Counted from the first letter of the stretch, positions 1 through 55,420 are shown. The stretch: 64,000 bases of DNA from Candidatus Dojkabacteria bacterium (GCA_012842045.1 DUTP01000003.1:2532-66531); one strand, 5' to 3'. The notes: a model not told the origin generated them from the letters alone. Numbers and translations: made by a program.

Positions 1-3000
1 CTCTCCGGACGATTAAATGAATTAGTACCTAAAACAGAAAATTTAGACATACTTGTTGGCTATTTTTACATAAGCGGTTTCTATCAGTTATATAAAAACC
101 TTGAAGAGGTAGATAAGATAAGGATTTTAATCGGACTTAATACAGAATCACAGGTGGTAGATGCTGTACAAGGTAATTTGGAAATACCTTTCGAATCAGC
201 AAAGAAAGTCAAGGACAGCATAAGTAAAAAATATATTGATGAAGTTGCAGCTGCAGATGACGATGTGAATGTAGAAGAAGGAATGTTGAAGTTTGTAGAG
301 TGGTTACAGAGTGGAAAGTTACAGATAAAGATTTATGACAAGGCACCTCTTCATGCAAAGCTATATATCTTCACATTTAATGAAGGACAATTAGATCCAG
401 GTAGGGTAATTACTGGGTCTAGTAATCTTACAAGATCTGGGTTAAAGGAAAACTTAGAATTTAATGTTGAGTTGAAGAATAGCAATGATTATAAATTTGC
501 ATTAGAGAACTTTAATGCTTTATGGGATGAAGCAATAGAACTTTCTGAAACCCTCAATGAAACTATAACTAAGAAGACTCACCTTAACGAAGAAATTACT
601 CCATATCAACTCTATCTTAAATTCCTCTATGAGTATTTTAGAGAAGATTTAACTGTAGACACAGAAATAGAAGACTATATTCCAGATGGATATTTAGAAC
701 TGGAGTATCAGAAACAGGCAGTAGTCAATGCAAAGAAGATAATAGAAGAGTACGGTGGTGTTTTCATCTCAGATGTTGTTGGTCTGGGCAAAACATACAT
801 CACGGCAAGATTGTTAAATGTTTTAGGAGGTAAGACATTGGTGATTGCATCTCCTGCATTGATTGCGAAAGATAATCCAGGCTCGTGGACTAATGTTTTG
901 ATGGACTTTGGCGTAAGAGGTTTTGAGTGTGAATCTGTTGGTATGTTAGAAAAAATTCTTGAGAGAGGTGTTGATAAGTTTGATAATGTTGTTATTGATG
1001 AATCTCATAATTTTAGAAATGAAGCGACACTGTCTTTTGAAAGACTTACAGAGATATGTAGAGGTAAAAAAGTTGTCTTGGTAAGTGCTACTCCGTTTAA
1101 TAACAAACCGAGTGATTTATTAGCGCAGATTAAGCTCTTCCAAAACAGCAGGAAAAGTACTATTCCAGGGGTACCCAATCTAGAGGCATACTTTTCTAGC
1201 CTAAAATCTAGAATAGGGCAGTTAAGTAGAAGAGATAATTATGAACAGTATATGGAAGTGGCGAAAAGCAATGCTCAAGATATTAGAAATAATATTTTGA
1301 AATATCTGATGGTAAGAAGGACTAGATCTGAGATAGAGAAATATTATAGTGATGATTTGAAAAAACAAGGATTGAAATTTCCAGAAGTACATGAACCGGA
1401 ACCGATATTCTATCAACTTGATAGTGAAGAGGAAGGTGCTTTTAACAAGACAATCTCTTTTATAGAGAATTTTAAGTATAGTCGTTACATCCCATTACTT
1501 TACTATACAGGAGAGTTGACTGAGCAAGAAAGGATTTCTCAGAGAAATATGCTTACATTCATGAAAATGCTTCTACTTAAGAGGTTTGAGAGTAGTGTGT
1601 TTGCATTTAAGAAAACACTCAAAAGATTTATTCGTTCATATGAGTTAATGATAAATCAGTTCGACCAAGGGAATGTATATGTAAGCAAAAAGAGAGCAAA
1701 CAAGGTTTTCCAATTGTTAGAGGAAAACAGGATAGAGGAACTAATGGATTTGATTGAGCAGGAGAAAGTAGAGTTTTATAAGAGTGAGGATTTCAATGAG
1801 AATTTCCGAAAGGATTTGGAGTATGATTTATCTCTTTTAAGAAATCTGGATGAAATATGGGAAAATATAGATAGAGATGTGAAGTTTGAAACTTTTGTTG
1901 AAAAATTAAAGTCAGATAAGATACTAAGTAATAATAAATTAATAATATTCACAGAATCTAAAGAAACAGCCAACTATCTGTCAGAAAAAATAGAGGAACG
2001 GCTAGGTGAAGAAAATCTTAACTATACTGGTGATTCAGCAACAGCTCTAAGAGCAGATGTGATTAAGAACTTTGATGCTAAAGCTCCTAAGAAGGAGAAT
2101 ATTTACAGAATTCTTGTTACAACTGAGGTATTAGCTGAGGGTGTAAACCTACATCAGTCTAATGTTGTTATTAACTATGATATCCCATGGAATCCAACAC
2201 GACTAATGCAAAGGGTTGGAAGAATAAATCGTGTTGATACAAAGTTCAAAGATATATATACATACAACATCTTCCCTTCTGTACAATCTAATGACATTCT
2301 TAAGTTAAAAGAGGCAGCAGAAGCTAAGATACAAATGTTCATAGAACTCTTAGGTAATGATGCAAGATTACTCACAGAAGGAGAGGAGATTAAATCAAAC
2401 GAATTGTTTGATAAGTTATCATCTAAAGAAACCATTATTGGTGAAACAGAAGAAGATAGTGAGCTTAAATATCTAACTGTTATTAAAGATATTCGAGATA
2501 AAAATGTAGAACTGTTTAGTCAGATTAAAAACTTACCTAAAAAATCTCGTTCTGCTCGAAGATTAGAACAACAATCAGGTAAACTTTTGACATATTTTAA
2601 GAAAGGGAAGCTTGATAAGTTTATCATCTCTGGTAGTAAAGAACCCCAAGAGTTAGGTTTTCTTGAAGCTATAAAACTATTTGAATGTAAAGAAGATACA
2701 AAGAGAGTAAATATTCCTTCTAGTTTCTACAAACAGATTAAAAAGAATAAGGAATACTTTGGAAGTATAACCTCAGAGGAAGGTGGGATGGTTCTTGAAA
2801 CTAGAACAGGAGCATTAGACAGGAAAATTCTAAAAAGATTAAATGCAAATACAGTAAAAAGATTTGATGGATTTACTGAAGAACAAGAGGAATATCTAGA
2901 GATTGTAAAGCAGAAAATTGATGAGGGTGCTTTACCTAAGAATTCTGCTAAAAGGATTTGGGGTAAAATGAAGAATATGGTGAAGCCATTAGAGATAGTT

Positions 3001-3111: not shown

Positions 3112-6100
3112 TGACAGAGCAAGAATCAAAGAAGCTCATAACAGAGACTTTTGAAAATGATTTTGATGAGGAGAGATTTAAAAGATTCATAGCTAATTTA
3201 CTAACAGAGTTTCAAGGTGTATCAAAACATACAGATAATCAATATGTCAAGGATGCATATAAACAATATATTGAATCATATGATGTAATAGGTAAATTCT
3301 CAGATTCGCAGAAGAAAACGGTAGATGTTTTAATTGTATATCTAAAGACAGAATCGACATTTACAGCACGAACCCGTCAGAGAAACTTTGCTTTAGATTA
3401 CTTAGAAAGCAAAGCTAAGGATGGTATTTTAATTGCATATGTTCATAAGAATAAAAAGGATTGGAGATTTTCATTTGTTAAATTGGAGAGTGATGTAATA
3501 CAGGATGAAGAAGGTAGAGTTAGGGATGTTTCAATCTTTACTGCTGCTAAAAGGTCATCTTTTCTAGTTGGTTCTAATGAGAATTCATATACTGCTAAAA
3601 AACAATTTTTACCTATTCTTCAGAAGGAAGAGAAACCAACATTTGAAGATATTGAGGAGGCCTTTAGTGTAGAGACAGTAACAAAAGAATTCTTTAATAA
3701 ATATAGAGAACTTTTCCATGATGTACACGAAGCGTTAGAGAAAGAAATTAAGAAGAAACCACATATAAAAGAAGAATTTGAAACAAAAGAGATTTCAACT
3801 GTGGACTTTGCAAAAAAGTTGTTAGGACAGATGGTTTTCCTCTACTTCCTACAAAAGAAGGGATGGTTTGGAGTTGCACCTAAAGAGGAGTGGGGTACAG
3901 GTCCGAAGAATTTCTTAAGAAAACTATTTGAGAGAAAGGATAATTATGGTGAGAATTTCTTTAATGATGTTTTAAAGCCACTCTTCTATGATGCACTAGC
4001 ACAGGATCGAGGACGAGATGCAATATACTCGAGACTTAATAATTGTAGAATGCCATTTCTTAATGGAGGACTTTTTGAACCAATGAGAGGGTATTCTTGG
4101 GAGACTACTGATATATTATTGCCAGATGAGCTTTTCTCAAACGAGGATAAAGAAGGAGAAGATGTTGGTACTGGTATTTTAGATGTGTTTGACAGGTACA
4201 ATTTTACTGTAAATGAGAGTAATCCATTGGAGAAAGAGGTTGCTGTTGATCCTGAAATGTTGGGTAAGGTGTTTGAAAATCTTTTGGATGTTAAAGACAG
4301 AAAAAGTAAAGGATCTTACTATACTCCTAGAGAGATAGTTCACTATATGTGTCAAGAATGTCTAATAAACTACCTTGAAACAGAAACAAAAGGAGAAATT
4401 CCTAGAGACGATATTGAGAACCTGTTACTTCATGGTGAGTCCATTATACAGAATGACTTTGTTACTTTAGAAAAACAAAGAGAAAAGGAAGAGAAAGGGT
4501 ATAAGTATTCTGGTGAATATAAGTTAAAACTTCCAGAGTCTATACGAAAGAATGCTAGAAAGATAGATGATTTACTTAAAGATGTTAAAGTTTGTGATCC
4601 AGCAGTAGGTTCTGGAGCATTTCCATTAGGAATGATAAACGAAATTGTTGGAGCAAGACGGGTGCTTCAGGTTTACTTAAGAGATAGACTTACTATATAT
4701 GATCTTAAGTATCATGCTATTGCTAATTCTATTCATGGCGTTGATTTAGATCCAGGAGCAGTAGATATTGCAAGACTTAGACTTTGGCTTTCTTTGGTAG
4801 TTGAGGAAGAGAATCCAAGACCTCTACCTAATCTTGAACACAGAATTATGCAGGGTAACAGTTTAATATCAGAATATGAAGGGATACCGCTTTTTAACAG
4901 AGAGCTTCTTTCTGAGTTTAATAAGGAGAAATTTGTACAGTTAGGTTTTATCTTTGGTTCTGGTATTAAGAAGAAGATGGAGGAGTTAGAAAGAAGTATT
5001 AAAATGTATGTAGGTACTTCACAAAGATCAGTTAAAGAGTCTTTGGGGGATAGAATAGATGAATTGAGGTGGGAATTGATAGAGGAGACATTAAAAGAGC
5101 AGAATAAGTTAGAAAAGGTAGATGAAATTCGGGAATTAAGAGAGAAGAGTATAAGACCTTTCTTTATATGGGAGTTAGAATTTAGTGAAGTATTTATGAA
5201 AAAGGGTGGTTTTGATATTGTTATTGGAAATCCTCCGTATGTTCAACTGCAGAAAAATCATGGGGAATTAGCTAAAATGTATGAAGATACTGGTTTTAAA
5301 ACATTTACAAGGACAGGTGATATTTATACCTTGTTTTATGAAAAAGGTAATGAAATCTTACATTCCAATGGATACTTGGCATACATTACATCTAATAAAT
5401 GGATGAGAGCTGGATACGGAGAGAAGCTGAGGAAATATTTATCAGAAGAAACAACACCTACTGTTTTAATTGATTTGGGGCCAAATATTTTCGAAACAGC
5501 TACTGTTGATACAAACATTTTAATTTTTAGGAAGGGCTTTTCCGACAAGAAATGTAGATCTTGTATTTTAAGGGAAAACTTTAAGAAAAGTGGTCTTTAT
5601 CTACATGAATATGTGAAGTCAAATAATATCTTACTTGATAAGTTTACTAGTGATAGTTGGTTAATACTTTCCCCTATAGAACGAAGTATTAAAGAGAAAA
5701 TAGAGAAATATGGAACTCCTTTAAAGGATTGGGATATAAAGATTTACAGAGGTATCCTTACAGGTTGTAATGAGGCATTTATTATCGATGGGAAAAAGAA
5801 GGATGAATTAATAAAACAAGATCCTAAATCTGCTGACATTATACGACCGATTTTGAGAGGAAGGGACATAAAAAGGTTTAGTTATGACTTTGCTGATTTA
5901 TATTTAATAAATACACATAATGGAATCGAACAAAAAGGAATACCTCCTGTAAAAATTGATAATTACCCTGCAGTTAAGAAACACTTAGATACTTATTATT
6001 CTAAGCTCAAAGAGAGGGATGATAAAGGAATAACACCATATAACCTTCGTAGCTGTGCTTATATGGAGGAATTTAATAAGCAGAAAATCGTCTATTCAGA

Positions 6101-6425: not shown

Positions 6426-6944
6426 AGTTTTTGAATGTCGTGTAAAGAGTGTTTTCTATTCTCAATATTTAATGGTATCGGAAGTAATAATAGACGATTA
6501 ACTTTTAATTCTCCTTCAATACCACCTCCCATATAAAAATGTCGTAAAGCAAAATAACAGACATCAGAGGTCAAAAAGCTTTCTAAAGGTATAATATTTG
6601 TACCTGTTATTATATTTCCAGGTGCTACTACCATATACTCTTTAGGCACTATTGAGAAAAATGCGCCTCCTGTCATTATTGCAGGGAAAGCTATTTTCTG
6701 CTTATTAAATTCCTCCCAATAACCTATACTATCTTGTGTCTCAAACCATTTGTTATTAGTTTTCTTTCTTGCATTATTTCCTTTAATTCCATAAACATTT
6801 TTCTTACCTGATTGTTCTAACTTCTCTTTTCCAAAAGTTAGAAGATAGTCTTTTACAGCTGGATAGTCATCGATGTTATAGTTTCTAGAAGGAAAAGTTG
6901 CGATTATCCATTTATCTGCAAACTCATAAGAATACCTCTTTATA
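5867..6944. other. putative invertible DNA segment (TRD shufflon) containing two convergent, homologous TRD-coding halves
   Basis: Bounded by perfect 28-bp inverted repeats. Midpoint (~6406) falls inside the 58-nt convergent overlap of the two TRD reading frames. The codon phase is preserved across the repeats, so inversion yields an in-frame fusion. Confidence 0.7.
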
Positions 6945-44553: not shown

Positions 44554-45150
44554 TTACATCCCTATTACATTCATAACACCTTGAACTTTCCTGCCCCACG
44601 CTTCTGCATTTGGAGGGCAGTACCATCTAGCCATTAATTGAGGTGTTTTTAAACCTTTAGAATAATATTTAGCAATACCAGCAGATACTTTCCATATTCC
44701 ATCTGTCCAGTTGTTAAAACCTCTTTTACCCCATCCCCAAGCATTGTAGGGTTTAAAGTTCTTTTTCCCTCCACCAGATTCGACTATAGATATGGCAGCT
44801 ACAATTCTGTAATCTATACCGTAATGATCTGCTGCTTTTATAAACTCATGTGCGAACTCTGATAAAGGAGATCTTCTTTTTGCTAGATAATTTCTTACTT
44901 TTACAATTCTTACATCTTCTGCAGGATTAATTTTTTCTTCAGAAGCTACTATTATTTCTTCCATCTCGATAGAATCCATTAAACCCTCTGCATTAAATCG
45001 AGTATATGTAGAACCAGTATTTTCAGTTAAATCTCCATAGAACTTTGAAACAGGTATCCTCTGAGATACTGAAGCAAATATAATCCCTAGGAATATGATA
45101 GCACTAATTACGCTTAGTAACTTTCTGCTTTTTAACCACATGGAACTCAT
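44554..45150 (-). CDS. secreted peptidoglycan hydrolase-like protein (glucosaminidase/lysozyme-like)
   Basis: Signal-anchor. IVAAISIVESGGG ... NAWGWG block. Confidence 0.35.
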   Translation of the reverse strand: MSSMWLKSRKLLSVISAIIFLGIIFASVSQRIPVSKFYGDLTENTGSTYTRFNAEGLMDSIEMEEIIVASEEKINPAEDVRIVKVRNYLAKRRSPLSEFAHEFIKAADHYGIDYRIVAAISIVESGGGKKNFKPYNAWGWGKRGFNNWTDGIWKVSAGIAKYYSKGLKTPQLMARWYCPPNAEAWGRKVQGVMNVIGM

Positions 45151-47003: not shown

Positions 47004-50000
47004 TTAGTTAATGGAGTTACCTTTTATTCTAATAAAGACACCCTCGCTATTACCTATTTTAATTTCATCCCCAAAAATATTATTTTCATTATCTTTTACT
47101 GTATACAAGAAATGACTCTTTGGCATACTCCATTGTGCGATTTGATGCATTAAGTTAAATTCTTGGTCATTTAATATGTCTTGTGCAGTTTTGTTAGTAT
47201 CTGAAGATAATGTCTTTGATGGTATTAGATGCCAACCACTTCTTAAATCTTCAATCTTAAGAGGAATGGGTATTGCAGCTCCTTTAACTGTGAATTTGAA
47301 GTCTAATCTTGCTTTTGATAGAACTAAGTATGTATTTCCACTGATTAGTGGGAAGTCTGGTCCAAATATTTTGTATAGACCAGTTTCACTATCCTTTTCT
47401 AGTTGTACTATTTTAACCCAGCTTCCATTCTGAAAAAGAGCAACTGTGGTGACCCTGTTATCAGACATGTTTATCAATTCATGTGCTGTTGTCGGGGCAG
47501 AACTCTGCTCTCCAATCACATATACAGGATTGATGAAGTTGTATCCTTCACTTATCTTATACTCTTTTGTGTTAAGGCTACAGTAATCGATTGCTATTTC
47601 TCTTCTTATCTCTCCAGGTATCTCCTTGCAGATGTATGGTTTTAATTTGGATAAAGTCTCATTGTTGTCATTGTAACAACATATGTTTGGAGTCTCTATG
47701 ACTCTTCCATCTGTGGTGCATGTTTTACCTATCTTAACATCTTTGTCCTCTATACCACTTCCTTCTGGATATATGCAAATACAGCCAGATTCGTTTTCAC
47801 AATCCCTATCTTCATCTGTTATATATAATTTTTCCTTACCGTATGTGTTCTTAGGTTCAATACTGCCATCTCTTTTACATACATCCTTATTAGTTACTAC
47901 CGCCCAATCAGGTTCTCTAGATATTTCGTCCCACTGGCATATACAATTGTTTCTATCGTTGCAATGCAGATCATTGTCCAAGGGTATATGAAGTATCGTT
48001 CTGATAATTTGAGGGTCAGGTAATGGTGTACAGGCTTCTCCCTGTTTAACTACCAGTTCTGTATTTGCCTCATCTGAGTACATGCAGATACAACCTTTTT
48101 CATTTTCACATACCATATATCTATCGCCCATTTGAATTTCTTCTTTACCGTATCTGTCAACAGGTACAACATCTCCTGGAGGGATTGCTAAACATACATA
48201 TTTATTTTCAACATCTTTCTGTATTCTTGGATCTACTTCGAGCCAGTAGCATATACATCCTTTTCTGTTGTTACAATGTTGGTCTTCATCTGTAATATAG
48301 AGTATGGTTTTTCCATCTCCTCTGATTATTGTACCATCTTTGCCACAGAAATCTCCCAGCTCTACTCTCTCTGTTCTTTCTGGAGGACCTGGATATATAC
48401 ATATACAACCATTTTCATTTTCGCATATAACATCAGTATCCCCTATAATTATGTCTTCTGGGTCATCTTCACTTTCTTTACATTTCTTCCCACATGGTAC
48501 TTCTTTTAAGTATCCTTTATATTCCTCACCATCTTTACTTCTAAAACACTCACAACCACCACCATCCCAACATGTTTCTCCTATGATAATATCTGCCTTA
48601 CCTGGTGGATCTTCAGAACAGTCCTTGTTTCCACCATCACTCTCACTTGGTGGCCCGAATCGACTCCCAGGACCTCCTGGACCTCCACCACCTTTGGTTG
48701 TACCTTTACACACTTCTTCTGAGCTAAACCATTCCATACCTTCATCATCTAGTTGATGACAACGAGTACGAGTGTTTTTTGTTTCTTCACATCCATCATC
48801 TCCCCAATCTGCTGTTCCCCAACATTTATACCAAGGGCCTCCATCAAGACAGTATTCATTTCTTCTAACTTTGAATGGGCCTACAACTTTTAGACCTCCT
48901 ATTACAACAGTACATTCACAACCAGTTATATGTTGACAAAGATGTTCTTCAGACCAAGGATCCATTTGTGGGTGAATGTATACTGTTTTCTCCTCTAATC
49001 CTTCCTCCGTGTATTCTGATTCTCCACCACTCAGCATTTTATCTAGATTGATGGAAGCATTACTATAATTACATGCGTTATGATCTGCGGGAATTAATGA
49101 ATATCCACTATAATAATCTTGAGAACTGCCTATATTTATATAATTTTCAACACCTTCTGTTGTTTTTTCTGCTCCACCAAATAAATATAAAGGACTAAGT
49201 GGCATTTCACTCTGTGCAGTTATTATAGCGTAATGATAATTAGTCTTAGTCCAGTATTTTAACCCATCAAAAAGGGAGCCATCACATCCTGATTTGTATT
49301 TTGCACCCCACTTAGCGTTTGTTTCTATTTTTTCACCCATTAAACGAACGACGTCATCAGAGATTATATCTCTTCTCTTTTTTTTGTCTGTAACCTCCTC
49401 CATATCTAAGAACTCTTGTTCTGATATTGTTCCACCACAATTTGCATAAAGAGTTCCCATCTTAGCAAGCTTTATGAACCAGTCTAATTGATCTTTAAAA
49501 TTTACATAGAGGTCATCTAATCCCGGATCGACACCAAAATCGTGAGTATTATTTGCATTTATTGCTACGTAATTACTGCCAGCAGTTTCTTGGTACCACA
49601 TTGTCAGAGCAAACCATGGGTTTACACCAGATTCCATACTTGTACAGTAAACATCATTGAAACATATTTCTACATAGTTAGCCTTACTATCTGAGTTCTC
49701 TCTTCCGTAATGTCTATCTGCAATAGCTTTTAACCATCCCCAAGAGTAATAAGATCCTGCATAACTCACTACGAAAGCTTCATTATTTATTTCTATACCA
49801 GTTAAACAGTTTGCAGGAAGTTTAAGTCGTTCACCTGGAGTTTGAGCACTACCATCAGCATAAACTCTTCTAACCAACATACTGTTTAATTTCTCTCTTA
49901 ATATCTCTTTAGTACTAATCTGTGCATACTCCTGTTTTGTATACTTTTTCCCCTGAGAGTCAAACGCATATGATCCAACATACCAAGAGTTAATCATAAT

Positions 50001-50492
50001 CTTCTCGCCATCTTCACTAGTCATGAGTAATAACTTATCAAATGTAGCTGTTCCTGTGGTAACAGTAGGCATTGTAATATTGTCTTTTACTTTTGGAGTT
50101 TTAAAAGAGTATCCATCTCTCCACATCTTTCTGTTTGAGATAATATGAAATTCATACTCTGTATCAGGTTTTAATTCTCCTATTCGACCAATATAAAGGT
50201 TTGTTTTTGTTAAATTATCATCAAAAACAAATAAATTTTCAGATACAAATTGAAGAGCCTCTGTAGATCCTTTCTCTCTGTAAGTTAATAACTGTAGACG
50301 ATCTTCACTTGTTTTCCAGAATACCTCAGCACTATTAGGTGAAATATTTGCAACTACAACATCAAATGGTTTCTCTTTAGCTATCTCAATTAGTTTTACA
50401 TTCTCAATAAATATTAATATACCACCAACAATTAGAGATATTGCAAAAATATATTTTAAAGCAAAAAATATTTTTTTCTTTGTTGTGTTCAT
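47004..50492 (-). CDS. giant secreted protein (1162 aa): signal-anchor, FN3-like domain, Gly/Pro-rich linker, tandem Cys-rich 'GCIC' repeats
   Basis: N-terminal TM. FN3-like PFDVVVANISPNSAEVFWKTSE...YEFHI. GGGGPGGPGSRFGPP. At least 5 repeats of [IL]xDEDxxCxNxxGCIC[IMQY][YW]. Confidence 0.6.
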   Translation of the reverse strand: MNTTKKKIFFALKYIFAISLIVGGILIFIENVKLIEIAKEKPFDVVVANISPNSAEVFWKTSEDRLQLLTYREKGSTEALQFVSENLFVFDDNLTKTNLYIGRIGELKPDTEYEFHIISNRKMWRDGYSFKTPKVKDNITMPTVTTGTATFDKLLLMTSEDGEKIMINSWYVGSYAFDSQGKKYTKQEYAQISTKEILREKLNSMLVRRVYADGSAQTPGERLKLPANCLTGIEINNEAFVVSYAGSYYSWGWLKAIADRHYGRENSDSKANYVEICFNDVYCTSMESGVNPWFALTMWYQETAGSNYVAINANNTHDFGVDPGLDDLYVNFKDQLDWFIKLAKMGTLYANCGGTISEQEFLDMEEVTDKKKRRDIISDDVVRLMGEKIETNAKWGAKYKSGCDGSLFDGLKYWTKTNYHYAIITAQSEMPLSPLYLFGGAEKTTEGVENYINIGSSQDYYSGYSLIPADHNACNYSNASINLDKMLSGGESEYTEEGLEEKTVYIHPQMDPWSEEHLCQHITGCECTVVIGGLKVVGPFKVRRNEYCLDGGPWYKCWGTADWGDDGCEETKNTRTRCHQLDDEGMEWFSSEEVCKGTTKGGGGPGGPGSRFGPPSESDGGNKDCSEDPPGKADIIIGETCWDGGGCECFRSKDGEEYKGYLKEVPCGKKCKESEDDPEDIIIGDTDVICENENGCICIYPGPPERTERVELGDFCGKDGTIIRGDGKTILYITDEDQHCNNRKGCICYWLEVDPRIQKDVENKYVCLAIPPGDVVPVDRYGKEEIQMGDRYMVCENEKGCICMYSDEANTELVVKQGEACTPLPDPQIIRTILHIPLDNDLHCNDRNNCICQWDEISREPDWAVVTNKDVCKRDGSIEPKNTYGKEKLYITDEDRDCENESGCICIYPEGSGIEDKDVKIGKTCTTDGRVIETPNICCYNDNNETLSKLKPYICKEIPGEIRREIAIDYCSLNTKEYKISEGYNFINPVYVIGEQSSAPTTAHELINMSDNRVTTVALFQNGSWVKIVQLEKDSETGLYKIFGPDFPLISGNTYLVLSKARLDFKFTVKGAAIPIPLKIEDLRSGWHLIPSKTLSSDTNKTAQDILNDQEFNLMHQIAQWSMPKSHFLYTVKDNENNIFGDEIKIGNSEGVFIRIKGNSIN

Positions 50493-50753
50493 TAATTAAT
50501 AATAGCAGATTTTAAAAATGTTGTGTATGTTATGTTATAGATATTATAATTTGTTAAGATATATAGCAAATCTTTTATTGGGGAATATTAATGATAGATT
50601 TAAAGCTATACAAAATGATATTAGCCCAGGAAGCTAAAGTTATGTATTCTCTCTAGCATCGAATGAAGAGAGGGTAAGTATAGCTACATTTGCAAGAAGA
50701 GTTGGTAGAAGTTCAGAACCCGTTTTTTCTTATCTATATGGGTAAAGAATAAC

Positions 50754-51098
50754 CTATTTACACATTTTAATAGGTTCGATAAGACATTCTTTGTCTCTCG
50801 TGGTTGTAAATGTTCCACATCTCTCTCTTATCTTGTTAGTATCAGTACAAGTTAGACCTTTACCACAAATTTTTGCAACATCAGTACCACATCTTCTTCC
50901 TTTTCTTAGATACTTTACACATCTATATTGGTTAGAATCTCCTATTTGTTTACACACAGAACCGTATCTACAGTCAGTTGATTTGGGGTTGCAAATCTCC
51001 CATAACTTTTTCTTTTTATAATTACTTAGGAGAAATAATACTAGAACACTAATTAAGACTACAATTACTAACATAATGACATATTTATACTTCTTCAT
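50754..51098 (-). CDS. small secreted cysteine-rich protein (10 Cys)
   Basis: Signal-anchor VIMLVIVVLISVLVLFLL, then CNPKSTDCRYGSVCKQ...RCV...RCGTDVAKICGKGLTCT...RCG...ECL...MCK. Confidence 0.5.
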   Translation of the reverse strand: MKKYKYVIMLVIVVLISVLVLFLLSNYKKKKLWEICNPKSTDCRYGSVCKQIGDSNQYRCVKYLRKGRRCGTDVAKICGKGLTCTDTNKIRERCGTFTTTRDKECLIEPIKMCK

Positions 51099-51374
51099 TG
51101 TTGATATATTATCTCATAGGTATGGGAAATGCAAAACTCCGCGACCTTCGTCGTGTGCGAACTTATTATATACAAACTATCTATGGAGAACAAGAATAGC
51201 TAGAAATGTTGTTTTAACAGAGAAGAAAATGAGTATAACTATTTAGTCTTATTCTTAACTATAAAACATTAAGTTTAATAGTATGTGTTAGTTATTCCCA
51301 GATAAATATCAGTGTAGACAGTTATAAGATGGTTTGCTAGAGTACTTACAAGAATTATTTTAATTATTTTTAAA

Positions 51375-52556
51375 ATGGAAGAAAGTACAGATTGGTATGA
51401 CGAAGTAACTAAAGAATTAGATGACTTAGTACATAAAGGACAGGTTTATGCACAAAATCCAGTTAATTTTATACATGCAGACTGTTGGTGTGGTTCTAAT
51501 AAAAAATATAAAGATTGTCACTACAAGCAAATTGATATGGCACCAATGACCAAGGAAGATTGTCGTCTCATATTTAAAAAATATAGAAGAAAGAGTTATT
51601 CTTGTTTGTTTAATGGTTGTTCAGAAAAATCAATAAAGTCTCATTCTATTCCTTCTAGTTGGTTGTCATCTATTATAGATTCAGATAATTTTGTTTATAA
51701 TTTCCCACTAAATCTTTTTAATAGTTCTCCAGAAGAGCCTTTTGAAGTAGAGAAACTTGGGGTTTTTGAGAGTTCAACTTTTAAGGGGTTTTGTTTGGAA
51801 CATGATTCAAAATTGTTTGAAAAGATAGAAAAAGAAGGAGGTTGGGAACTAACCGATGAAAACTGTTTGCTACTTTACTACAGAAGTGTATGTTATGAAC
51901 TTTTTGCCAAATGTAGAGCAATGAGTATTTTAGAAGAAGTGAGGGGAGATATTAGTATGGGAAAAGACCCTGTTTCTCAAGTATGCATATTTGAAGTACT
52001 ATGTGGGAGAATCTTGGGAATGAAAAAAGCGGTTGAAGATTTAAGTGTTTTGAAAGATAAAATAGAGCAATATATCAAAGAAAAAGATTTCAGTGTCGTT
52101 TCTTATACATATATCCCCATAGAGAGTCCAATAAACATAATGGCTAGTGGAATTCATCATCCAGAACAGACATTTGAAGGAAGAGATTTGCAGAATCTGG
52201 CAGAAGATAATTTGATGAATATGTCCTGTATTGTAGGGCAGAATGGGGAGGAGGAATTTGTTTTATTCATAAGCATAGATGAGAATGATGAAAGAGCTGC
52301 AAGATTTCATAAGGATTTATTAACTTGTGATAATTTAGGTAATCGCATAGTAATTTATCTTCTTGAGACAACTGAAAATTTGTTTTGGAGAATTTCTGAT
52401 TGGGATCATTTAACAAATACTCAAAAAGACAAGGTGTATAGTATCTTAGGAGGTTCAGTTAATAGTGATATCTTGGAATACTCAAAAGAGGATTTTATTA
52501 CTGGTATAGAATCCTTTGCTACAAAGGACTCTAAAATACAACAAAAGATTGTTTAA
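51375..52556 (+). CDS. hypothetical protein with N-terminal SEC-C metal-binding motif
   Basis: CWCGSNKKYKDCHY matches the SEC-C motif (CxCGSxxKYKxCH). Confidence 0.5.
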   Translation: MEESTDWYDEVTKELDDLVHKGQVYAQNPVNFIHADCWCGSNKKYKDCHYKQIDMAPMTKEDCRLIFKKYRRKSYSCLFNGCSEKSIKSHSIPSSWLSSIIDSDNFVYNFPLNLFNSSPEEPFEVEKLGVFESSTFKGFCLEHDSKLFEKIEKEGGWELTDENCLLLYYRSVCYELFAKCRAMSILEEVRGDISMGKDPVSQVCIFEVLCGRILGMKKAVEDLSVLKDKIEQYIKEKDFSVVSYTYIPIESPINIMASGIHHPEQTFEGRDLQNLAEDNLMNMSCIVGQNGEEEFVLFISIDENDERAARFHKDLLTCDNLGNRIVIYLLETTENLFWRISDWDHLTNTQKDKVYSILGGSVNSDILEYSKEDFITGIESFATKDSKIQQKIV

Positions 52557-52606
52557 TTCAGAGATGTTGTTATTTTTTTAGTTGAGCATTCTTTTGTTTT
52601 CTGTTC

Positions 52607-53107
52607 TTACCTTTCTTTGTGTCCTATCTTTTCCTCTGTCAAATCTTTGGAAATTTCTTTCTTTATTTCTTTTTTGGTTTTAAATAATTTATACAGTAGA
52701 ATAAATACAAGAATAGATGGTCTACCACCTCCAAACAGAGATAAAAGAACTATAATTATTGAATAAATAATTAGAAAGGTAATAATTCTTTTTATTTTGC
52801 CTGTGTCAGTATCACCTATCTTTCTCATTCGTATTCCACTAACAAGCATAGGTATAAAGAAAATTATAATTAACAAAGCAGCTAGTATAGAACTTCCTTT
52901 TATAAAGAGCATATATAAAGGTAAGATTACAATCTGGATAATAGAATAACCTATTGTAAGATTAGCAAGACTAAGGATGCTTTTCTTAATTGTGTCTTGA
53001 GTAGTAGATTGGGTAATCTTCTTCTTAGAGGTGGGTTTGTCATTCTCATCTAGATGTAAGATGTGTGTTATCCCATCTTTCTCTATCTTCACATCTCTGT
53101 TTTCCAT
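52607..53107 (-). CDS. small hypothetical membrane protein
   Basis: 166 aa with ~3 TM helices. Start codon lies inside the repeated sequence of the structured leader. Confidence 0.45.
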   Translation of the reverse strand: MENRDVKIEKDGITHILHLDENDKPTSKKKITQSTTQDTIKKSILSLANLTIGYSIIQIVILPLYMLFIKGSSILAALLIIIFFIPMLVSGIRMRKIGDTDTGKIKRIITFLIIYSIIIVLLSLFGGGRPSILVFILLYKLFKTKKEIKKEISKDLTEEKIGHKER

Positions 53108-53266
53108 TGGTGTGGTTTTTAAATTTTAGCTGTCTTCTAGAGACCACAAATGGTCTCCCGCTCACCGACAGTCCCTTTCGGAACCATCCATAAACCTTTC
53201 GGCTTATGACCACACCAATGGCTAGCGAGACAGAAGACCATCTCTGCATTGGTGTGGTTTTTGTGC
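53104..53266 (-). ncRNA. GC-rich structured RNA element with mutually exclusive pairings (riboswitch/attenuator-like; strand uncertain)
   Basis: ~50% GC island in a 33% GC genome. Direct repeats ccattggtgtggttttt (53104-53120) and cattggtgtggttttt (53247-53262). The intervening gaccacaccaatgg (53208-53221) can pair with either copy. GAAA-capped hairpins lie between. Confidence 0.4.
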
Positions 53267-53561
53267 CATACCTACAAAAGTAGGGTTAGGCTATTCAATT
53301 GTTCCAGATTATAGCATTTTCTTTAGAAAAAAGTACAAAAAAACAAATAATAAACATATGCTGTAAAACACAACCAAAACCCTCGCCCCAACTTGCTTTT
53401 GATTATTTCCATGTTAAACAAAAATCTTGGAGAATCTTGGAATATGTTGGAAAATGTTGGTATATGTGAACTGGGTGAAATAACAGCTTTTAAGGGGTTG
53501 TAAGGCTGTTTAAACAGTTGATTACAAGCAAGCGGTGTGTTTATATGTTAAAATCTATTGA

Positions 53562-53795
53562 ATGAAAAGATTTGGTAAATCTTCTAAAAAAGAAAAGGAA
53601 GATTTTGGACTAAGAGGGTTCTTTAAGGCTGTTAAAGACATACTAGATAATCCTCAATTCACAATACGATATTCAAAAGGTAAAAAAGACATAACAGGAC
53701 ATGCTTATACAGAAGCTTCAGTAGGTGATGACCTGAATGTTGAGCATACACCAAAAGGAGAAACAAAAAGTAAAGTTATAAAAGTAGATAAATGA
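53562..53795 (+). CDS. small basic protein translationally coupled to the serine recombinase (possible directionality factor/accessory)
   Basis: 77 aa. ATGA overlap with the recombinase start at 53792. Confidence 0.35.
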   Translation: MKRFGKSSKKEKEDFGLRGFFKAVKDILDNPQFTIRYSKGKKDITGHAYTEASVGDDLNVEHTPKGETKSKVIKVDK

Positions 53796-55387
53796 ACAAT
53801 GCAGACACCAAGAAAATTAAGGTGTTGGCATATCTAAGGAAATCAACAGAAGATAACAAAGAGGGGGAGGCTAGAAGGCAAAAAAATTCAATAGAGTATC
53901 AAAGAGAGGTAGTAAAAGAAATTGCTGAGAGAAACAATTTGGAAATTGTACGATATTTTGAAGATAGTAAAACTGGGTATAAAGCTTTTCAAAGAGAAGG
54001 GTTTGATAAGATGTTAGAATTCTTCAGAGAACAAAAACATGAAGGTGTTGTCAAAGGGATAGTTTGTTCTGAACATAACAGATTAGCTAGAAATTTTGGA
54101 GATGGAGGGTTTTTGTTGTGGTATTTACAAGATGGGTTAATAAACACCATATATACATATGACAAGATCTTCACCAATTCAGCTAGTGACCAGATGATGT
54201 TGGCTATAAACTTTGCTATGTCAAAACATTCTAGCGATGAAACAAGTTGGAGAACAAAAAGAACATGGAGTCATAGAGCACATACAGAAGGACAACCACC
54301 AAATCAGCATTTAGCAGGATATAAATATACAGGTGAAAAAGGGAAGAGATTTTGGACAGTTGACAAAAAGAATGCTCCTATCGTCAAAGAAATGTTTGAG
54401 AGGTTTGCAACAGGTGAGTATACAGTAAGTGAAATTTTTGATTATGCTGTATCAGAAGGTTTAACAAGTCCTAAAAGCAAGAAAACATATGATTCAGAGA
54501 AATCAATAAGAGGGCTATTAAAGAAAAAAGAATATACAGGAATATTTATGTATGAAGGTGAGGAAATAAAAGGGAAGTATCCACCTCTTATTAGCTCCGA
54601 ACTATTTTACAAGGTGCAAGAAGTGTTGTCGGGAACAGCACATCCTAAGACACAAGGCAAGAATGAATATGCTTATACTGGCTTAGTAAAGTGTGGTGTT
54701 TGTGGTGGGAATATGTCTGGGACTATTAGAAAAGGAATAACATATTACAGATGTCTTCATCGTTATGAACCTTGTAAGAGTAATAAAGGACAACGACCTT
54801 CTTATCTAAGAGAAACTCTTATAGATGAAGAAATTACTGAACTGTTACTAAAGATTCAGGTTTCTGACAAACAGTTTAATAAGCTAATTCCTTATGTATC
54901 TGACTTTTTTGAAGATGAGAAGTCTAAATACAGATATGAGATAATTCAACTCAAGGGCAAGCTTACAGAGGCACAAAGAAATTTAGATTTTTACAATAAA
55001 GAGTTATTCACAATAAAAAGAGTTCCCGAAAAGGAAAGAGATAAAGATTGGTTAATGGATAAAGAAGGTTTAGAAGGGCTTAGAGAAAATGCTCATCAAG
55101 AAAAAGAGATGTATGAGAGACAGATTTCTAAAGCGGAAAACTTAAAAGATACAGTTCCAACTTTAATGTTTAATTTCCTTAAGGGAATAAAAATTGTTGG
55201 TAGTAGATTTAAAACAGCTTCACCCTCTAATAAGCGACAGATTGTAGATACTCTTTGCGCGAACTTTAAGTGGAATGGCAAAGAACTAAGCTGGGAGTGG
55301 AAAAAACCATACCACCTACTTACAAATTCTAATGAAAAAAGAAGATGGCTCCGCGACCAGGACTCGAACCTGGAACCGAACGGTTAA
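53792..55387 (+). CDS. large serine recombinase (phage-integrase type)
   Basis: N-terminal resolvase domain KVLAYLRKSTEDN. Recombinase domain. Zinc ribbon CGVCGGNMSG...YYRCLHRYEPC. Coiled-coil. The last 14 codons run into tRNA-Asn on the opposite strand. Confidence 0.8.
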   Translation: MNNADTKKIKVLAYLRKSTEDNKEGEARRQKNSIEYQREVVKEIAERNNLEIVRYFEDSKTGYKAFQREGFDKMLEFFREQKHEGVVKGIVCSEHNRLARNFGDGGFLLWYLQDGLINTIYTYDKIFTNSASDQMMLAINFAMSKHSSDETSWRTKRTWSHRAHTEGQPPNQHLAGYKYTGEKGKRFWTVDKKNAPIVKEMFERFATGEYTVSEIFDYAVSEGLTSPKSKKTYDSEKSIRGLLKKKEYTGIFMYEGEEIKGKYPPLISSELFYKVQEVLSGTAHPKTQGKNEYAYTGLVKCGVCGGNMSGTIRKGITYYRCLHRYEPCKSNKGQRPSYLRETLIDEEITELLLKIQVSDKQFNKLIPYVSDFFEDEKSKYRYEIIQLKGKLTEAQRNLDFYNKELFTIKRVPEKERDKDWLMDKEGLEGLRENAHQEKEMYERQISKAENLKDTVPTLMFNFLKGIKIVGSRFKTASPSNKRQIVDTLCANFKWNGKELSWEWKKPYHLLTNSNEKRRWLRDQDSNLEPNG

Positions 55388-55420
55388 CAGCCGTTTGCTC
55401 TACCATTGAGCTATCGCGGA
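55346..55420 (-). tRNA. tRNA-Asn (anticodon GTT), CCA encoded
   Basis: Reverse complement TCCGCGATAGCTCAATGGTAGAGCAAACGGCTGTTAACCGTTCGGTTCCAGGTTCGAGTCCTGGTCGCGGAGCCA. Confidence 0.85.

Follow-up and report, generated by a model that had tools for sequence, protein, structure and literature searches.

Why should the gene for a recombinase run into the 3' end of a tRNA gene that is itself intact? The question is raised by a 64-kb stretch of DNA from Candidatus Dojkabacteria (the window; all positions follow whole-window numbering, and related loci are numbered L001, L002 and so on), in which a large serine recombinase (LSR) open reading frame (ORF) converges on tRNA-Asn(GTT) and shares 42 nt with its 3' end. 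At 100% identity the window matches both contig DAITKO010000001.1, from a metagenome-assembled genome of Candidatus Dojkabacteria (GCA_036836175.1), and one JGI contig; the host lineage belongs to the Patescibacteria, or candidate phyla radiation (CPR). An earlier sequence-only reading had proposed an integrated element of about 4.2 kb at this tRNA gene, a proposal borne out by the junctions, the empty sites and the copy in a second host described below. Judged from these comparisons, the segment 51147-55358 is very probably a small integrative mobile element, which its own LSR inserted into tRNA-Asn(GTT) at the 3' end. The features central to the argument are:

55346..55420, minus strand: tRNA-Asn(GTT), intact, the proposed integration target (ARAGORN; Rfam 71.5 bits).
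53792..55387, plus strand: LSR of 531 aa (Pfam domains and R16/S18 motif).
51147..55358, unstranded: the probable integrated element, 4,212 bp with one core copy (L007/L008 break; L001/L077 identity; attL motif).

The overlap of the two genes had been predicted at these positions, and ARAGORN, Rfam and Pfam agree with it. The last 13 sense codons of the LSR and its stop are the antisense of tRNA-Asn, the TAA overlapping the anticodon complement. The protein contains the Pfam domains Resolvase (PF00239, E 7.7e-18), Recombinase (PF07508, 1.6e-14) and Zn_ribbon_recom (PF13408, 4.4e-09), and matches the PHROGs integrase family phrog_95 (9.5e-61). Its catalytic motif Y-L-R16-K-S18 aligns with the R-x-S of 3guv and TnpX, and R16, K17 and S18 are invariant across 18 LSR relatives. 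In the alignment of relatives the zinc-ribbon cysteines C301, C304 and C321 are likewise invariant and C328 is nearly so; the ribbon is followed by some 130 residues (about 353-480) in which heptad-like sequence is abundant. Solved LSRs are only very weakly similar to it in sequence (E 2e-4 to 2e-6). With a catalytic Ser/Arg domain, a Recombinase domain and a zinc beta-ribbon, the product of 53792..55387 has the predicted features by which a serine integrase is defined. The three other ORFs that the sequence-only reading had placed between the repeats, namely a SEC-C-motif ORF, a membrane-protein ORF and a 77-aa ORF coupled to the LSR by ATGA, are all present.

A ten-base repeat, CTCCGCGACC, would delimit the element, and the sites around its two copies are best read as follows:

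51137..51146, unstranded: left repeat copy, the proposed attL common core CTCCGCGACC (exact repeat; host trailer, …TGCAAAA, to its left).
51147..51172, plus strand: attL element-side arm (P' arm), with the conserved GTGCGAAC at 51155-51162.
55320..55348, plus strand: attR element-side arm (P arm), formed by the 3' end of the LSR ORF (TGG in occupied sites).
55349..55358, unstranded: the proposed attR common core CTCCGCGACC (exact repeat).

The attR core consists of the discriminator base, the 3' acceptor strand and the first two T-stem bases of the tRNA. Exactly two copies of CTCCGCGACC are present in the 64 kb; the repeat itself was correctly described beforehand, and only its right-hand coordinate (55350-55359) requires correction by one base.

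The right-hand boundary is provided by genomes of the same species in which the insertion is missing. When genomes were searched with hpf as the query protein, 18 Dojkabacteria loci were obtained for comparison; in the right flank of the window the gene order is hpf, a SurA-like gene, an M23 peptidase gene and ftsX/ftsE. L007 and L008, both of the same species, have tRNA-Asn beside hpf, and the recombinase, SEC-C, membrane and 77-aa genes are all missing. L007 is 94.8% identical to the window from position 55348 rightwards and L008 98.97% identical from 55349, and because both realign only from these positions the homology break lies exactly at the start of the core. These are the uninserted relatives by which the sequence-only reading had suggested that its proposal be checked. 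The site is thus occupied in the window, L040, L041 and L042, and empty in L007 and L008. Data sets in which the element is present include ERR14232071/63/64/72, SRR17318398, SRR17318448, ERZ2931791 and JGI 3300002837. Among 16 Dojkabacteria loci that cover it, four are occupied (including L011, which has TGG and a full recombinase ORF and is therefore counted as such), three hold remnants, eight are empty with no encoded CCA, and one, L024, has TGG, and with it an encoded CCA, but no recombinase.

The left-hand boundary, which had been placed tentatively at the repeat, gains support from an arm conserved at the left ends of related elements. The junction CTCCGCG-N11-GTGCGAAC has a single copy in the window (at 51137) and is present also in L004, L005, L021, L063/L109, L077, L081, L089, L115 and L147, where it forms the left end of related elements with unrelated cargo (in part only for L115). 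These elements measure about 1.6 (a decayed copy), 3.7, 4.2, 7.8, 8.6 and 10.5 kb. A scan of metagenomes with the attL motif returned 102 stretches, mostly GC-rich chance matches, of which eight low-GC loci were relevant; in L154 and L156, which are distant relatives, a simple core search gave no convincing attL. Left of the window core lies a host trailer without TGG/CCA, resembling that of the empty sites, and this A-rich, host-like sequence with no TGG is also found in L077, L089, L115 and L147. The left repeat is intergenic, and a minus-strand gene begins about 38 nt away from it; the tRNA end is similarly placed in empty sites. Such an arrangement would be expected if attL (host arm, core, element arm) is at the left junction and attR (element arm, core, tRNA) at the tRNA. 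Only CTCCGCG is common to both element ends in L004, L005, L021 and L089, and because nothing else is shared the crossover is placed within these 7 bp; the common core accordingly comprises 7-10 bp. Two observations had been named in advance as contrary to the proposal, the same gene order without a recombinase and a repeat lying within a core-gene region, and neither was found.

Could the repeat nevertheless be a coincidence, the recombinase being engaged in inversion, resolution or some other reaction? A repeat of ten nucleotides is short, and 2 bp of identity are enough for serine recombinases. However, in 100 dinucleotide-preserving shuffles no match arose, the flanking arm is conserved at about nine independent loci, and it is exactly at the core that homology with the empty sites and with the second host breaks off; nor is an inverted partner site present. 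A chance origin of the repeat is hardly credible.

The second host is represented by L001-L003, in which the LSR is 99.4% identical to that of the window, yet hpf is only 76%, SurA 62% and M23 40% identical. When the window was compared with L001 in 100-nt steps, identity was 96-100% over 52983-55381 and 89-94% over 52783-52982, and in the host flank it fell to 0.42-0.89, mostly about 0.70; the anticodon stem of the L001 tRNA is already of the host type. L077 overlaps L001 at 100% over 700 nt and so supplies the left junction of this copy, an identical element arm on a different host flank. The L001/L077 copy is about 3.7 kb in length and has a 421-aa membrane protein in the place of the SEC-C gene, which is thus exchangeable cargo, being missing from an otherwise near-identical element. 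LSR identity and host identity are decoupled more generally (L011: LSR 49%, hpf 78%; L004: LSR 64%, hpf 54%). Since the element is about 99% identical and the flanking genes about 70%, transfer must be far more recent than the split between the hosts. These identities indicate that the element is mobile and that it has been transferred recently between species.

The same comparison bears on the view that what we see is a fixed remnant, in which an inert or domesticated recombinase has been retained and the repeats are the scar of a past event. Circular junctions were not found, the element is tiny and has no transfer or replication genes, and decayed relatives do exist: L063/L109 keep an 81-aa LSR fragment, and L009, L012 and L013 the last ~61 nt. 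On the other hand, a scar would not account readily for a ~99% copy in a host with ~70% identical flanking genes, for a full-length ORF with its catalytic residues intact, or for a site that is both occupied and empty within one species. We consider fixation of the element very unlikely.

Several observations do weigh against an integrative mobile element bounded at 51147 and 55358. A scan of viral_contigs for excised circles or an attP junction found none, and contigs of about 4.2 kb with relatives of the element, which were considered as circles, were rejected as short integrated fragments beside host genes and tRNA-Asn. An exact-protein look-up of the 114-aa gene in the left flank gave no empty site, all contigs found carrying the element, so that the left boundary is placed by the conserved junction motif and not by comparing genomes that have this flank. 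To the left of the tRNA a giant surface-type gene and small ORFs make up a hypervariable region, which cannot be aligned even within the species. The B and P arms show little recognisable symmetric inverted-repeat similarity. The 77-aa candidate for a directionality factor has no recognisable fold. Composition does not distinguish the element from its host: there is no GC or skew anomaly, and the comparison of GC that had been suggested as a check (0.326 in the element, 0.338 in the window) was uninformative.

How the element might travel between cells is a related question. Scans with Pfam, PADLOC, PHROGs and NCBIfam found no transfer (FtsK/TraB-like or type IV secretion) or replication genes in it, nor polymerase, primase or helicase domains (Pfam). 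Phage genes were also missing, the PHROGs matches being confined to the integrase, and LSR relatives were not found in IMG/VR. Because the element has no transfer or replication genes of its own, its movement between cells must depend on something else, and the FtsK-like translocases of related elements, or DNA uptake, may assist it.

A further property of the occupied site is the encoded CCA. TGG at 55346-55348 is a Trp codon of the LSR and, on the opposite strand, the CCA of tRNA-Asn. In the eight empty sites an A-rich trailer stands directly before CTCC(G/A)CG and no CCA is encoded (for example, …GGAAAAA followed by CTCCACGACC… in L008), whereas every occupied site reads TGG followed by CTCCGCG. 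The other tRNA genes in the window (14787, 24581, 24676, 25154 and 38180) do not encode CCA in any of the five cases. Since both the empty sites and these five genes lack it, the CCA of tRNA-Asn is derived from element DNA.

Taken together the sites are consistent with the following scheme. The attP of the free element would span the 3' end of the LSR gene and read …GAAGA-TGG, CTCCGCGACC, TTCGTCGTGTGCGAAC… (predicted junction …AATGAAAAAAGAAGATGGCTCCGCGACCTTCGTCGTGTGCGAACTTATTATATAC…), and attB would be the host tRNA end, …AAAA, CTCCGCGACC, AGGACTCGAACC… (predicted junction …GGTATGGGAAATGCAAAACTCCGCGACCAGGACTCGAACCTGG…). LSR dimers bound to attP and attB would make a 2-bp staggered cut inside CTCCGCG, followed by rotation and rejoining, to give attL at 51137 and attR at 55349. 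The tRNA would be rebuilt unchanged, its discriminator-proximal end and encoded CCA now coming from the element. Integration at such an attP would be the reason why the LSR ORF ends in antisense tRNA sequence. A circular intermediate, an exact crossover dinucleotide and current activity are presumed in this scheme, as is the help of the coupled 77-aa protein in excision.

The spacing of a short motif is of interest in this respect. In serine integrases the motif bound by the zinc ribbon is 5 bp nearer the crossover in attB than in attP (PMC3783163). Counted from the start of the core, CGAAC is found at +17..21 in the tRNA arm (the T-loop region) and at +22..26 in the element arm, at all junctions. 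A shift of 5 bp is what would be expected of recombination between attP and attB with its centre in CTCCGCG, an inference drawn from one arm only, the other being uninformative. Coding constraint on the attP form of the LSR tail was also considered and set aside: the frame is open for 18-31 codons in nine of nine junctions, its extension past the conserved motif is not clearly beyond expectation for AT-rich DNA, and DNA binding could explain the conservation.

It might also be asked whether 4.2 kb is the whole unit, or the newest layer of an older, stacked island that includes the two genes to its left:

47004-50492, minus strand: repeat-rich, Cys-rich giant protein of 1162 aa (left flank).
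50754-51098, minus strand: Cys-rich secreted protein of 114 aa (left flank).

A composite island of this kind, extending over 47004-51098, could explain why the left flank cannot be aligned at the DNA level between genomes of the same species and why the 114-aa gene is always beside the element; tandem stacking is apparent elsewhere (in L063 a LOOT RNA copy lies left of attL), and some attL sites have TGG and a P-arm-like stretch. However, no further att-like site was found left of the element within the window, a near match at 44849 being intragenic and without a core. Homologues of the giant gene occupy the same position in other Dojkabacteria with 30-45% identity, though neighbouring genes are 93-99% identical, and because they adjoin the tRNA in empty sites too, the giant genes are fast-evolving host genes; by these identities the giant-gene locus is a predicted hypervariable surface-protein locus. 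An older island is thus unlikely, and it would add a layer to the 4.2-kb unit without contradicting it.

Two sets of loci show traces of possible stacking. In the left junctions of L004 (1037-1075), L005 (1080-1115), L021 (1205-1245) and L081 (1-50) the core is preceded by TGG and by sequence similar to the recombinase 3' end, so that these junctions resemble a whole attP; stacking next to an earlier remnant, or a host tRNA that natively encodes CCA, are possible causes. In L063 a LOOT copy (5368-5495) and a membrane-protein gene lie about 1.1 kb left of the attL junction at 6638, which bounds a decayed 1.6-kb element; this arrangement suggests that two elements are stacked at the same tRNA.

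Relatives of the enzyme are found at the same target. LSR homologues are numerous in Patescibacteria, and all 13 distinct relatives inspected (the window, L001, L004, L005, L011, L018, L021, L033, L034, L035, L089, L154 and L156, other CPR lineages included) terminate within tRNA-Asn(GTT), which they overlap by 13-42 nt, at identities down to 40%. Each of the 13 is preceded by an overlapping small ORF of 70-110 aa, which in the window is:

53562..53795, plus strand: 77-aa ORF, overlapping the LSR start by ATGA, translationally coupled.

The small ORFs are homologous, with P31 and Q32 invariant and PQxTxRYxKG in the closest Dojkabacteria relatives; none of the 36 database relatives of the 77-aa ORF is annotated. 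An AlphaFold model of the protein was poor (predicted local distance difference test, pLDDT, 55) and gave no match to a fold in the PDB or elsewhere. As a guess, the 77-aa protein is a candidate accessory or directionality factor.

The structured RNA leader that had been noticed in front of the membrane-protein gene is the orphan LOOT RNA, RF03000. The features concerned are:

53167..53292, minus strand: LOOT RNA RF03000, the part covered by the Rfam model (74.5 bits against a gathering score of 46.4; model positions 1-121 fully covered).
53130..53292, minus strand: LOOT RNA with its 3' hairpin, the 5' leader of the membrane-protein mRNA (conserved extension, GTGAGCGGGAGACCA…).
53308..53316, minus strand: extended -10 box TGcTATAAT, 15 nt upstream of LOOT, as read from sequence only.
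53104..53117, minus strand: start-codon region AACCACACCAAUGG, with AUG at 53107-53105, complementary to the 3' strand of the LOOT long stem.
52607..53107, minus strand: membrane protein of 166 aa, behind the LOOT leader.
LOOT-leader copies: window 53098-53316 (minus strand), L004 3611-3808, L005 7249-7451, L021 1453-1653, L063 5368-5567 and L115 8695-8904.

Our own model, R1, gave LOOT 138 bits as its sole match in the window. LOOT is found in six distinct elements (window/L077, L004, L005, L021, L115 and L063), the L021 copy scoring under the threshold at 42.7 bits, and a search with our model found none in L011, L018, L089, L154, L156, all empty-site loci or the rest of the window; the 3' extension pattern had two matches in viral_contigs, both unrelated. 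Every copy has an extended -10 box before it and a gene on the same strand directly after it, and the proteins encoded by these genes are mutually unrelated. Conserved sequence extends past the 3' limit of the Rfam model and includes one more hairpin. The long stem has a 3' strand, CCAUUGGUGUGGU, that in the window and L115 is complementary over 13 bp, with no mismatch, to the start-codon region AACCACACCAAUGG; this duplex has a predicted free energy of -21 kcal/mol, and it is this alternative helix that appears in the minimum free energy structure of the whole leader. The other LOOT type has a weaker alternative helix of 10-11 bp just upstream of the AUG, in which one position co-varies with the stem. 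Rfam lists LOOT as a trans-acting small RNA. The pairing potential of segments CCAUUGGUGUGGU and ACCACACCAAUGG suggests instead that LOOT, which can sequester the start codon or ribosome-binding region of the gene that follows, could be a cis-acting translational switch carried by the elements, on the basis of few lineages.

How does the element compare with systems already known? Phage serine integrases (A118/LI, phiC31, Bxb1) resemble the window LSR in having three domains with a catalytic Ser, short att sites and a small common core, and in the 5-bp attB/attP shift of the half-site motif (PMC3783163); a separate directionality factor is expected to be needed for excision in both. The window element differs in that it has no phage genes, its target is a tRNA rather than a protein-coding gene, and attP overlaps the 3' coding end of its own integrase. 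In the Islander-type islands of tyrosine integrases (PMC4383910) the integrase abuts an intact tRNA, the displaced tRNA 3' end marks the far boundary and the tRNA is regenerated, all as in the window. The window enzyme is, however, a serine rather than a tyrosine recombinase, the repeat is only 7-10 nt long, and there are no arm-type sites. The tycheposons of Prochlorococcus are small cargo elements at tRNA genes, of which 27 of 937 use an LSR (bioRxiv 10.1101/2020.12.28.424599). They share with the window element only the tRNA site and LSR usage, in streamlined genomes; replication genes (primase, helicase), which tycheposons often carry, are not found in the window element, and the host lineage is another.

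Small size and variable cargo are also features of staphylococcal cassette chromosome (SCC, SCCmec) elements. These are small non-conjugative cassettes moved by the LSRs CcrA and CcrB at the 3' end of a housekeeping gene, with short direct repeats; remnants and stacked copies at the same site are further traits shared with the window element. The window element differs from SCC in its target, tRNA-Asn rather than rlmH, in having a single LSR with a small coupled ORF, and in its phylum. Against the NCBIfam CcrA and CcrB models its LSR reaches E of about 1e-17 and 60-63 bits, where the cut-offs are 700-900, and it is not a Ccr orthologue. Actinomycete integrative conjugative elements (AICEs), the topic of PMC3218068, transfer by means of an FtsK/SpoIIIE-type translocase. 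The relatives L004 and L021 combine an LSR, a tRNA target and an FtsK_SpoIIIE translocase, which could be used for DNA transfer; the window element, without an FtsK-like or replication gene, would be a stripped-down relative at most.

The element is therefore a member of a known general class, that of serine-integrase integrative elements, and its general mechanism is ordinary site-specific integration. What is uncommon is the tRNA target, attP inside the integrase ORF, donation of CCA, a CPR host and the association with LOOT. That these amount jointly to an undescribed, CPR-wide family dedicated to tRNA-Asn, with attP inside the integrase ORF, CCA donation to a CCA-less tRNA and LOOT as a cis switch, is a tentative proposal that we hold with somewhat less than even confidence. 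Were it true, integration would exchange the C-terminal tail of the LSR in the window copy, from …WLRDLRRVRTYYIQTIYGEQE to …WLRDQDSNLEPNG. A full-text literature search found no paper on serine-integrase elements at tRNA genes in CPR/Patescibacteria. Mobile elements of CPR/Patescibacteria are poorly described, and the present case offers both junctions, empty sites, a second host and relatives. The predicted attP and attB are short and the target is a conserved tRNA end; pairs of this type are used in genome engineering and could serve as genetic tools for CPR. The family of elements also provides the orphan LOOT RNA with a genomic home and a testable mechanism.

The main cargo gene left to describe in the window element is:

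51375..52556, plus strand: SEC-C-motif protein of 393 aa, cargo (Pfam SEC-C only).

The protein family appears large and uncharacterised, with 2,289 cluster representatives at E<=1e-3. Its invariant residues are C37, C39, C48, H49, C77, C82, H90, C140, H143 and D144, which include a second Cys/His/Asp cluster. An AlphaFold 2 model of high confidence (pLDDT 91) had no similar fold in the PDB or BFVD by Foldseek, and PADLOC, PHROGs and NCBIfam gave a match to the SEC-C motif only. The 166-aa membrane protein is probably a shortened form of the 421-aa ORF of L077.

In related elements the cargo is often of the defence type. L004 (4211-8784) encodes an FtsK-like protein and an HpaII-type restriction-modification pair, L005 an HNH protein and L089 (710-4042) a DNA methyltransferase-like gene; further cargo, in L154 (6815-7858) and the JGI contig of P0049, includes an NmeDI-like endonuclease and AbiEii with a reverse transcriptase. 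The remnant sites L012 (9307-9441), L013 (2271-2405) and L009 (1686-1822) retain the last ~61 nt of the recombinase ORF and TGG before tRNA-Asn. They represent two LSR lineages with the same start point (CTAAGCTGGGA) and are preceded by degenerate bits resembling the left arm; instead of random scars they may be miniature elements, or elements with internal deletions.

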